A stretch of DNA of 63,741 nt, filler included, from Collodictyon triciliatum (taxonomy: Eukaryota), in assembly GCA_043381765.1 (NCBI GenBank). It is 4 parts of 4 records of this genome, joined end to end, with 100 filler letters (N's around TTAATTAATTAA, not from the genome) between each part and the next. Parts side by side here need not be neighbours in the genome. Positions count along the whole stretch, not along the records: positions 40,379 to 60,480 come from JBHJMP010001261.1; 3 more parts are not named here. One strand, 5' to 3'. The notes under the pieces were generated by a model, which saw only the letters and a list, made by a program, of their open reading frames with translations, had not been told where the DNA came from and made no database searches. Below are positions 53,187 through 56,164 of this stretch, in pieces (within the stretch, counting starts at the first letter, position 1; every line of letters starts with the position of its first letter). A program made the translations under genes and the position numbers.

Positions 53187-56164
53187 TTATGGATTGCGGA
53201 AATTCTCGCCAGCATAAACTGCTTCTTCTCCGAGCTCTTCTTCGATACGAAGGAGTTGGTTATACTTGCAGAGCCTCTCTGAGCGGCATGGAGCTCCCGT
53301 TTTGATTTGACCTGTGGCCAGACCAACCACCAAATCCGCAATAAATGTATCCTAAGACGAAAAATTTTAACACACATATGATACACAGAGGCTACGAGAG
53401 GTGTGATATCAACCTGATAATTTTTTTTTTTTGGTCTTGTTTACAACTGTTGTTTCGTTTTGCTCCTGTATATAGCAAACAGACATAAGGTGGTGACATT
53501 TTTCGCCCATATTTACCTCAGTTTCGCCAGAACGATGGCTGACCATAACACCCCAACCTGCTGATCGAGCCAACTTTGCTGCACGGATACTCTCGGTTAC
53601 AGACCCAATTTGATTCACTTTCAGCAACAGAGCGTTGCACGCTTTTCGGTCGATAGCCATCTGAATTCTCTTTGGGTTTGTCACCAACAAATCATCACCA
53701 ACAATTTGAATGGGTACTGAGGACGTGAGTCCGTTGTAGGATTCAAAGTCGTCTTGGTCGAAAGGATCTTCGATAGAAACAATCGGATACTCCTCGATAA
53801 AACTGCGGTAAAGATTGGCTAGGCCCTCTCCATTAAGTCGCTTGCTTCCATCATTATCCTATGTATGTAGGTAAAGGGAAGCTCTGTGAGATTCAACACA
53901 TAAACATGATGTGCTACAAACATTTTCATATAATGGACTATATCAACTTTGAATCGAATAAAGGGAAAGAATGATTACATCTCTTAAGCTACCTTAAATA
54001 ATGTATTTACCTTGGTTTTAAAGTCCAAATCATAAACTTTTTCGTTCCCGAGATAAAATTCCGAGGCAGCGACATCCATCCCTATCTTAACTTTGCCTAT
54101 ATAAAAAAATATAGTAAAAACAGGTGTCGTCTACAGAGACCGGTAAATAAAGATTTAAAAAAAAAAAGATAAATCATTCAACCTGTATACCCCGCCTTTT
54201 CGATGGCAACTCGAAGCAGTTCAAGTCCTTCTTTATTATCGAGAATATTCGGAGCAAAACCTCCCTCATCACCCACATTCGTTCTAAGAAATATCCCCGT
54301 TGATTTAAAATAAAATGTATTCATATCATTGATTTCTCTGCTTTAATGATAAAAATAATTATGTTTTTATAGAATATTACGCATCCTGTCCGTATTTGGA
54401 TTTAATAACGCCTTTGAGGGTGTGGTAAACCTCAGCTCCCATGCGGAGAGCCTCACTAAAATTCGACACGCAAACGTATTGAATTAGGTGATTGTTGCTT
54501 TTTACATAATATATGGACATATCAAACAAGGAGTTAAATGTTTTCCTTTCTACTGCACCAGGATGATTAGATATTAAATCAAACCTGAAATTCGGGGCGC
54601 CAACTGGTAGTATCATAAACTCTTGCATGGCTAGCTTATTGCCTGCATGGGAACCTCCGTTGATGACGTTGAAAGCTGGAACAGGCAACACTATTTTTTC
54701 GACACCAGCAAGCTTGGCGATATAACGATAGAGAGGAAGTTTCGAAGCGGCAGCGCCAGCTTTGCAAATGGCTAAGGAAACTCCAAGGATGGCATTCGCG
54801 CCCAATTTGCCTTTGTTTTCTGTACCGTCTATGGATAGCAGCTTCTCATCCAATGCTTCCTGGTTGAGGACTGACTCACCAATCAGCTGTGGAGCTATGA
54901 GTTCGTGTATGTTGCGGACGGCTTGCTGAACTCCTTTCCCAAGGTATTGGGTCTTGTCTCCGTCGCGAAGTTCTAATGCTTCATAGATTCCTGTGGAGGC
55001 TCCGCTGGGGACAGCAGCACGAAAAAGGCCATGTTCTGTGGTAAGGTCAACTTCCACTGTCGGGTTTCCTCTTGAATCTAGAATTTCACGTGCTCTAATA
55101 GTTTTTATGACCCCTGCTTGGGTGGTTTGGGTCGCGTTGGGTCCCGATATACTGGAACGTTCTGTTGCTTCCTTTGACTGTTCTTCCTTTGGTTGCTCCT
55201 CCTTTGGTTGTTCCTCCTTTGGTTGTTCTTCCTTTGGTTGTTCTTCCTTTGGTTGTTCCTCCTTTGGTTGTTCCTCCTTTGGTTGCTCTTCCTTTGACTG
55301 TTCTTCCTTTGGCTGCTCCTCCTTTGGTTGTTCCTCCTTTGGTTGCTCCTCCTTTGGTTGTTCCTCCTTTGGTTGTTCTTCCTTTGGCTGCTCCTCCTTT
55401 GGTTGTTCCTCCTTTGGTTGCTCCTCCTTTGGTTGTTCCTCCTTTGGTTGTTCCTCCTTTGGTTGTTCTTCCTTTGGTTGTTCCTCTTTTGGTTGTTCCT
55501 CCTTTGGTTGTTCTTTCTTTGGTTGCTCTTCCTTTGGTTGTTCCTCCTTTGGTTGTTCTTCCTTTGGTTGCTCCTCCTTTGGTAGCTCCTCCTTCGGTTG
55601 CTCCTCCTTTGGTTGTTCCTCCTTTGGTTGTTCCTCCTTTGGTTGTTCCTCCTTTGGTTGCTCCTCCTTTGGTTGCTCCTCCTTTGGTTGCTCTTCCTTT
55701 GGTTGCTCCTCCTTTGGTTGCTCTTCCTTTGGTTGTTCCTCCTTTGGTTGCTCTTCCTTTGGTTGCTCTACCTTTGGTTGTTCTTCCTTTGGTTGTTCCT
55801 CCTTTGGTTGCTCTTCCTTTGGTTGCTCTTCCTTTGGTTGCTCCTCCTTCTTGTGCTCCTCCTTCTTGGGCTCCTCCTTCTTGGGCTCCTCCTTCTTGGG
55901 CTCCTCCTTCTTGGGCTCCTCCTTCTTAGGCTCCTCCTTCTTGGGCTCCTCCTTCTTAGGCTCCTCCTTCTTAGGCTCCTCCTTCTTAGGCTCCTCCTTC
56001 TTGGGCTCCTCCTTCTTGGGCTCTTCTTTCTTTGGTGCTGGCGCTGCGGCTGGGGCTAGTGGTTTCTTAGGCTCCTCTTTGGGCGCAGCAGAGGGAGCCA
56101 CGGGCGATTGGGCGTTTTGTGAAGGGGCTTTTTTGGAAGAAAAGCATCCTATACCTGCGCCCAT
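53187..56164 (-). CDS. ENO: Enolase with ~350-aa N-terminal acylation motif plus pentapeptide-repeat extension
   Basis: [95 protein letters not shown]; 5 GT-AG introns; stop at 53187-53189. Confidence 0.96.
55170..56033 (-). repeat. Coding 15-bp tandem repeat, about 12 x KKEEP followed by about 45 x KEEQP
   Basis: The 15-nt period is visible directly. Variation is almost entirely synonymous (GAG/GAA, CCC/CCT), and the repeat is in frame with enolase. Confidence 0.92.

Follow-up and report, generated by a model that had tools for sequence, protein, structure and literature searches.

A candidate lipid-anchored enolase with a long, predicted disordered repeat spacer in Collodictyon triciliatum

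The closest described counterparts of the gene reported here, an enolase gene in a 63,741-nt stretch of DNA from Collodictyon triciliatum (assembly GCA_043381765.1; the whole stretch is hereafter called the window), are proteins placed in the cell through their N-termini. The sperm hexokinase HK1S is myristoylated at Gly2 and palmitoylated at Cys5, which brings it to the plasma membrane (PMC4736023). In Trypanosoma brucei, the flagellar enzyme AK3 has a myristoylated N-terminal extension that is required and sufficient for its flagellar location and acts via Unc119, whose binding depends on myristoylation (PMC4517888; bioRxiv 10.1101/2020.05.07.083568), and the calflagins carry Cys at positions 3–4 (PMC4517888). 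The apicomplexan protein GAP45 is N-acylated, and its extended body spans a gap of 20–30 nm beneath the plasma membrane (PMC5004448). An enolase is itself a subunit of the C1b arm of the ciliary central apparatus in Chlamydomonas, where it is recruited by an N-terminal addition (PMC9113940).

We found that the window encodes, on its minus strand, a complete enolase behind a 352-residue extension made of a leader with a putative acylation motif, 57 pentapeptide units and a short linker. As these systems are described in the accounts cited above, HK1S offers the likeness of a glycolytic enzyme with an isoform-specific acylated N-terminus (MGQICQ) in a flagellated cell; however, HK1S is another enzyme of animal origin, its N-terminal domain is short and is described without a repeat spacer, and its lipidation is experimental, whereas that of the Collodictyon protein is predicted. 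AK3, together with the calflagins and FCaBP, shares the lineage-specific N-terminal extension with Gly2 and lysines on an energy enzyme, but its extension has only ~25 residues without repeats, and AK3 is a phosphagen kinase rather than a glycolytic enzyme. GAP45 combines a myristoylated and palmitoylated N-terminus with a gap-spanning body; unlike the Collodictyon protein, it is structural, anchored at both ends, and has neither an enzyme nor a pentapeptide array. The Chlamydomonas C1b enolase is likewise recruited to a compartment through an N-terminal addition, but that addition is short, folded and docks to protein, in contrast to a lipid-type start followed by ~285 repeat residues. Our enolase matched the Chlamydomonas structures (PDB 7n6g, 7sqc) from residue 37 of the 477-residue chain, and residues 1–352 contained no Pfam family and no modelled helix that would represent a docking domain of the RIIa/DPY-30-like type.

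Enolases with other N-terminal additions also exist in public protein sets. Natural fusions join PGI, guanylate kinase or PGK to enolase (P0254, P0260, P0262), all with an EWGWS insertion, and tandem double enolases reach 870–900 residues (P0003–P0006). These too are additions to a complete enolase, but the added parts are second enzymes instead of a low-complexity tether that opens with an acylation-type motif. Full-text literature searches, whose coverage stopped short of subscription journals and supplementary files, returned no description of an acylated or repeat-tethered enolase. We group the gene with the known lipid-anchored or compartment-targeted energy enzymes, among which it stands out by its enzyme and by the very long, regular spacer.

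Gene structure, transcripts and the enolase domain

The gene runs from an ATG at 56164 to a TAA stop codon at 53189–53187 and consists of six exons separated by five GT..AG introns of 129, 97, 86, 152 and 165 nt, with no N in it. The spliced model has a coding sequence of 2349 nt, from which a protein of 782 residues, 87.9 kDa and pI 4.9 was computed. Exon 1 (56164–54585) is a single open frame of 526 codons that ends at the GT at 54584 and encodes the leader, the repeats and the first 174 enolase residues. The original prediction had described one uninterrupted frame; its coordinates were exact, and the frame holds through exon 1, but the remaining enolase is split by the five introns, whose removal is needed to read it.

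The three minus-strand frames were compared across the extension. The enolase frame has a stop at 56224–56222, 19 codons upstream of the ATG, and from 56221 down through the leader and the repeats it is the sole open one. Between 56230 and 55100, it contains one stop (56224), compared to five and seven in the other two frames, several of which fall inside the non-repeat leader. Met is absent between residue 1 and residue 513 of the predicted protein, so the extension must be translated if a functional enolase is to be made from this mRNA.

Transcripts were sought in four (X1–X4) of nine sequencing runs, the other five (X5–X9) having small shares of the sampled words; the reads of X1–X4 were compared with 53100–55240, a stretch that holds the last four repeat units. 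Runs X1 and X2, tentatively labelled as RNA, come from one study and matched 42% of the sampled words, compared to 6–14% for freshwater and aquaculture metatranscriptomes; X3 and X4 are metatranscriptomes. Contigs of 1563 nt (X1) and 1648 nt (X2) join 53350/53516, 53857/54010, 54095/54182, 54283/54381 and 54455/54585, and these five joints correspond exactly to the modelled introns. Five precise joints in one contig identify the material as processed mRNA. The same contigs are unbroken from 54585 to 55225, passing through the linker and the CAG at 55116–55114 and ending in the repeat, so that the repeat-to-enolase junction is present in mature, fully spliced mRNA. The joint of the last intron was also recovered in X3 and that of the first intron in X4, where a contig covers 55093–55228 with two differences from the window. 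Downstream, the 3' untranslated region extends past 53100, with the contigs running 66 and 151 nt further. The CAG before GVIKT had been named as a possible splice acceptor that would remove the repeat; it was unused in every contig examined from X1–X4, which are blind to rare isoforms, and the proposal that the mature mRNA keeps the repeat was borne out at the repeat-to-enolase junction. The gene is therefore real and expressed, and it comes from an intron-rich freshwater protist.

The window differed from the contigs at five sites in both X1 and X2 and at a sixth in X2 only. Five of the six differences are synonymous, and the other one changes Arg706 to Leu: at 53584 (plus strand), the window has C and the X1 and X2 contigs have A. 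The enolase of Diphylleia also has Arg at this position, and the change stems from strain variation or from an error on one side, the window or the contigs. In intron 3 (54108–54179), X1 reads reached a depth of 75.8, although the main X1 contig splices this intron out; the depth may come from T-rich low-complexity matches or from unspliced material.

The enolase domain is complete, as had been proposed. Pfam Enolase_N was matched over its full length (1–131 of 131, E 1.3e-57), and Enolase_C was matched at positions 2–37, 127–241 and 242–294 of 296 by exons 1, 5 and 6, the exons included in the scan together with the Enolase_N part. All nine motifs looked for (GGSH, QEFM, GDEGG, DVAASE, IEDP, GDD, LLK, SHRS, QIKTG) were present in the spliced protein, and those encoded by exon 1 are invariant columns in a 15-sequence alignment. 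We take these residues to have their usual catalytic and metal-binding roles. The domain shares 88.4% identity over 430 residues with the plain 432-residue enolase of the collodictyonid Diphylleia rotans (P0016), and its second-best relative has 78% identity. The record name of P0016 ends in '.p2', a sign that its transcript had a further ORF called on it. In a FastTree tree of 43 rows picked from the enolase matches, the two sequences are sisters with an SH-like support of 100. Their end branches are similar (0.088 for the tethered enolase and 0.069 for Diphylleia rotans), which gives no sign of relaxed constraint on the enolase domain. By its sequence, the catalytic part of the 88-kDa product is an ordinary enolase.

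The N-terminal extension

The predicted protein starts with MGAGIGC. Its 44-residue leader has Met-Gly, Cys7 and Lys11-Lys12, followed by a Pro/Ala-rich part, with a net charge of +3 and no hydrophobic stretch. The array that follows comprises 57 pentapeptide units over residues 45–329 by our own count (12 of the KKEEP type, one transitional and 44 of the PKEEQ type), and Tandem Repeats Finder reported 56.3 copies of a 15-nt period at 55170–56014. A linker of 23 unique residues (330–352) separates the array from the enolase.

Differences among the units are nearly all silent in the enolase frame. Relative to the unit consensus, the PKEEQ block has 40 synonymous and 6 non-synonymous differences and the KKEEP block 6 and 1, compared to an expectation of 7/45 synonymous for a single random change in a unit; in the other two frames, nearly all of the differences would alter a residue. 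The PKEEQ block contains 11 distinct DNA units that encode five distinct peptide units. The unit count and the synonymous excess agree with those originally proposed. These counts are supportive only, since the units are copied from one another, which inflates the counts, and the events are not independent. We rank the open-frame analysis as the stronger evidence.

The extension has a net charge of -38 (leader +3, KKEEP-type block A 0, PKEEQ-type block B -41), with a charged fraction of 0.55, a Pro fraction of 0.18 and a hydrophobic fraction of 0.03. Over windows of 19 residues, its Kyte-Doolittle mean peaks at 0.005. Lacking any hydrophobic segment, the extension is neither a signal peptide nor a membrane helix, and a transit peptide was also rejected, as the leader, read by eye, is not of the amphipathic basic type. 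An AlphaFold2 (AF2) model built with a 15-sequence alignment placed no secondary structure before residue 352, and the model confidence (pLDDT) was 38–59 over residues 1–350. In the enolase N domain (residues 351–490), strands and helices were modelled, with pLDDT values of 47–95 in 10-residue blocks, mostly 70–95, and a dip to 47–57 near residues 391–410. Pfam found no domain in residues 1–352. Together, these results predict that the 352-residue extension is intrinsically disordered and net-acidic, which is in line with the disordered, charged spacer of ~290 residues that had been put forward; the array itself counts 285 residues.

To our searches, the extension appeared specific to this gene. 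None of about 470 listed enolase relatives and loci carried an extension of this kind, which upholds the claim that canonical enolases lack it. With the exon 1 protein as the query, none of the 120 listed matches covered more than 35% of it. With the extension alone, 414 matches were obtained at E <= 0.01; none of the 120 listed had an enolase Pfam domain, and those listed were all compositional, the nearest being linker regions such as those of TonB-type proteins and 2-oxoglutarate dehydrogenase E2 subunits, besides IF2. Among the best 150 matches of an exhaustive phmmer search, the repeat-matching P0244, P0318, P0380 and P0278 were unrelated repeat proteins (P0252 and P0281 stood outside this check). 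No metagenome contig matched a degenerate DNA pattern built on the first 12 codons, and the ESM Atlas gave no usable match with the extension as the query.

A protein-guided scan of metagenome contigs yielded 374 relatives, of which 80 loci with identities of up to 78% were retained; none of the 80 had a long extension. Seventy of these loci begin 1–8 residues before the conserved core, five lack a Met in the part that is open upstream, and the remaining five have extensions of other kinds with 43–73 residues. Among metatranscriptome eukaryotic enolases, P0052 (residues 1–40), L077 (17–175) and L078 have an N-terminal extension of a shared type with 35–53 residues, similar to the addition on the Chlamydomonas enolase; Pfam found no domain in those of P0052 and L077.

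A candidate membrane anchor and its alternatives

The N-terminus of the protein resembles a dual-acylation signal. In a simple pattern test, Gly2, Gly6 and Cys7 of M-G-A-G-I-G-C fit G-{EDRKHPFYW}-x(2)-[STAGCN]-{P}, the myristoylation pattern PROSITE PS00008. A second, S-acyl anchor usually goes with a Cys and basic residues, and the leader has Cys7 near Gly2 as well as the basic Lys11 and Lys12.

We favour, with moderate confidence, the reading that this is a lipid-anchored enolase tethered near a membrane by a long disordered spacer. Under this reading, the initiator Met would be removed and Gly2 would be N-myristoylated co-translationally. Cys7 would then be S-acylated with the aid of Lys11-Lys12, which would fix the N-terminus to the cytosolic face of the plasma or ciliary membrane. 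The 57 Pro-containing charged units would be unable to fold, and their net negative charge should repel the acidic inner leaflet; unfolded and repelled in this way, the repeats would act as a flexible spacer of ~285 residues that sets the enolase dimer off from the membrane by tens of nanometres and yet keeps it in that compartment. The outcome would be a conversion of 2-phosphoglycerate to phosphoenolpyruvate that is concentrated near the membrane. We infer that translation starts at the ATG at 56164, that both lipids are attached, that the protein sits at a membrane and that the array serves as a spacer.

Several points weigh against this reading. Position 6 of the motif is Gly, whereas Ser or Thr is the preferred residue, and Cys7 lies further from Gly2 than Cys5 in HK1S or the Cys at positions 3–4 in calflagins. 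The lipidation motif was judged by a match to a simple pattern, and conservation lends the leader no support, as the extension occurred in no other organism searched; in the closest relative, the enolase (P0016) is plain. Other simple repeats abound in the window, so neutral expansion could account for the array, and the copy number of an array of 845 nt is uncertain in a gapped assembly of short-read type. Finally, the 5' 940 nt of the coding sequence, including the ATG and the leader, lie outside the stretch compared with reads, which allows for another upstream exon or start, and the contigs reveal neither rare isoforms nor the transcript start.

The alternative that fares best is that a 15-nt minisatellite expanded within a short N-terminal extension and was tolerated, the Met-Gly being incidental and the 88-kDa enzyme cytosolic. 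Some of the other simple repeats in the window lie within open frames, every other enolase examined is without the extension, and the 11 DNA types of the PKEEQ block may mean that the synonymous excess reflects a few amplified variants and not selection. However, Gly2, a permitted residue 6, Cys7 and Lys11-Lys12 come together in the leader, and the frame has stayed open along 1056 nt in which the other two are closed. With no internal Met to bypass them, 352 extra residues are also paid for on each enolase made from the gene. We regard neutral expansion as somewhat unlikely, a minor but appreciable contender.

Collodictyonids are flagellates, and the repeats might instead form a cytoskeleton- or axoneme-binding module or ruler. 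Its KKEE units would attach to microtubules in the manner of MAP1B, and the protein, linked to both the membrane and the microtubules, would bring the enolase to the axoneme or cortex. The microtubule-binding region of MAP1B, as described, contains many KKEE and KKEVI motifs (PMC2115962), and the C1b enolase of Chlamydomonas is a built-in ciliary subunit (PMC9113940; PDB 7n6g, 7sqc). The MAP1B region is, however, highly basic (PMC2115962), whereas block A has a net charge of 0 and block B of -41. Our array also has a strict 5-residue period in place of the irregular spacing of MAP1B, the likeness is limited to a four-residue motif, and residues 1–352 are devoid of Pfam domains. We consider a microtubule module very unlikely. 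A wrong 5' model is just as improbable. In that case, the array was misjoined or miscounted in assembly, or the gene has another first exon or start, and the protein does not begin with MGAGIGC. In favour of it, the read-compared stretch excludes the leader and the array's first 790 nt, N runs occur eleven times in the window, and the pattern for the first 12 codons was unmatched in metagenome contigs. Against it, the gene is free of N, its mRNA enters the repeat in frame, the frame is the sole one open back to the stop that precedes the first ATG by 19 codons, and no further in-frame Met occurs before residue 513.

The lipid-anchored enolase, our preferred reading, thus keeps the gene, the mRNA junction, the fit of the motif (Gly2 with Cys7 and Lys11-Lys12) and the predicted disorder of the original prediction, with the anchoring itself deduced from the motif. 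The flagellar ATP supply that had also been suggested comes by analogy only, as does a flagellar location of the enzyme, which we consider unlikely. In an extended form of the anchored reading, the leash would be a ruler, and the doubly acylated dimer, on two acidic arms of ~285 residues each, would take part in a lower glycolysis that is bound to the membrane and provides ATP to the flagella or the feeding groove of a collodictyonid-like flagellate, perhaps along with further enzymes that have this leader and these repeats. That form seems distinctly unlikely. Even without a real lipid anchor, it is clear that a housekeeping-type enzyme carries a 41-kDa disordered repeat.

Feature coordinates, neighbouring genes and biological meaning

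Table 1. Features of the tethered enolase gene, with positions counted along the window.
Feature	Coordinates	Strand	Evidence
Tethered enolase gene, complete coding region with six exons	53187..56164	-	Gene model, translation; five splice joints in RNA contigs
Leader, residues 1–44	56033..56164	-	Translation; outside the stretch checked with reads
Repeat block A, residues 45–109: 12 KKEEP-type units and one transitional KKEEQ unit	55837..56032	-	Repeat count
Repeat block B, residues 110–329: 44 PKEEQ-type units	55177..55836	-	Repeat count; RNA contigs enter the block
Non-repeat linker, residues 330–352, with CAG 55116–55114	55108..55176	-	RNA contigs continuous across the linker
Enolase N-terminal domain and barrel start, end of exon 1	54585..55107	-	Pfam Enolase_N, residues 353–482; AF2 model
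Exon 2	54381..54455	-	Joints 54455/54585 and 54283/54381 in RNA contigs
Exon 3, GDEGG inside	54183..54283	-	Gene model, RNA contigs
Exon 4, DVAASE inside	54011..54096	-	Gene model, RNA contigs
Exon 5, IEDP, GDD, LLK and SHRS inside	53517..53858	-	Gene model, Pfam, RNA contigs
Exon 6, QIKTG and stop codon	53187..53351	-	Gene model, Pfam

A class I aminoacyl-tRNA synthetase follows the enolase immediately downstream, also on the minus strand, with exons at 45681–52257 (Pfam tRNA-synt_1, E 1.9e-27 and 2e-19). By eye, this synthetase resembles a valyl-tRNA synthetase, with a Lys-rich N-terminal open reading frame (ORF) from 52257. Minus-strand exons of an ion channel were identified at 26000–27075 (Pfam Ion_trans_2, E 1.2e-6; pore-loop GFGD motif), and those of a CDC50/LEM3-family flippase subunit at 61951–62744 (Pfam CDC50, E 6.8e-31). 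At the edge of the window (63363–63740, minus strand), a reverse-transcriptase fragment with a YADD-type motif scored 26.1 bits against Pfam RVT_1, below the cut-off of 29.6, and is probably a retroelement remnant. A mixed di- and tetranucleotide microsatellite of ~800 nt with a strong AT skew of 0.47 (44300–45130) adjoins an exon-like ORF at 45130–45330 on the minus strand, which by eye resembles a metallo-beta-lactamase-fold hydrolase; Pfam gave no match on the 67 residues scanned.

The host belongs to a poorly studied lineage of deep-branching eukaryotes near the base of Amorphea. Where glycolytic enzymes are sited, and especially how ATP is provided for cilia, is an old question that has been answered in few model organisms. 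If the anchored reading is true, the gene would be a natural case of tethered metabolism, with an enzyme made only with an anchor-type start and a long charged spacer, and it would offer a simple system for studying how the length and charge of a tether set the working distance of an enzyme from the membrane. If the ruler and the flagellar supply were also true, Collodictyon would represent a third independent way to fuel cilia, beside C1b docking in Chlamydomonas and isozyme anchoring in sperm.

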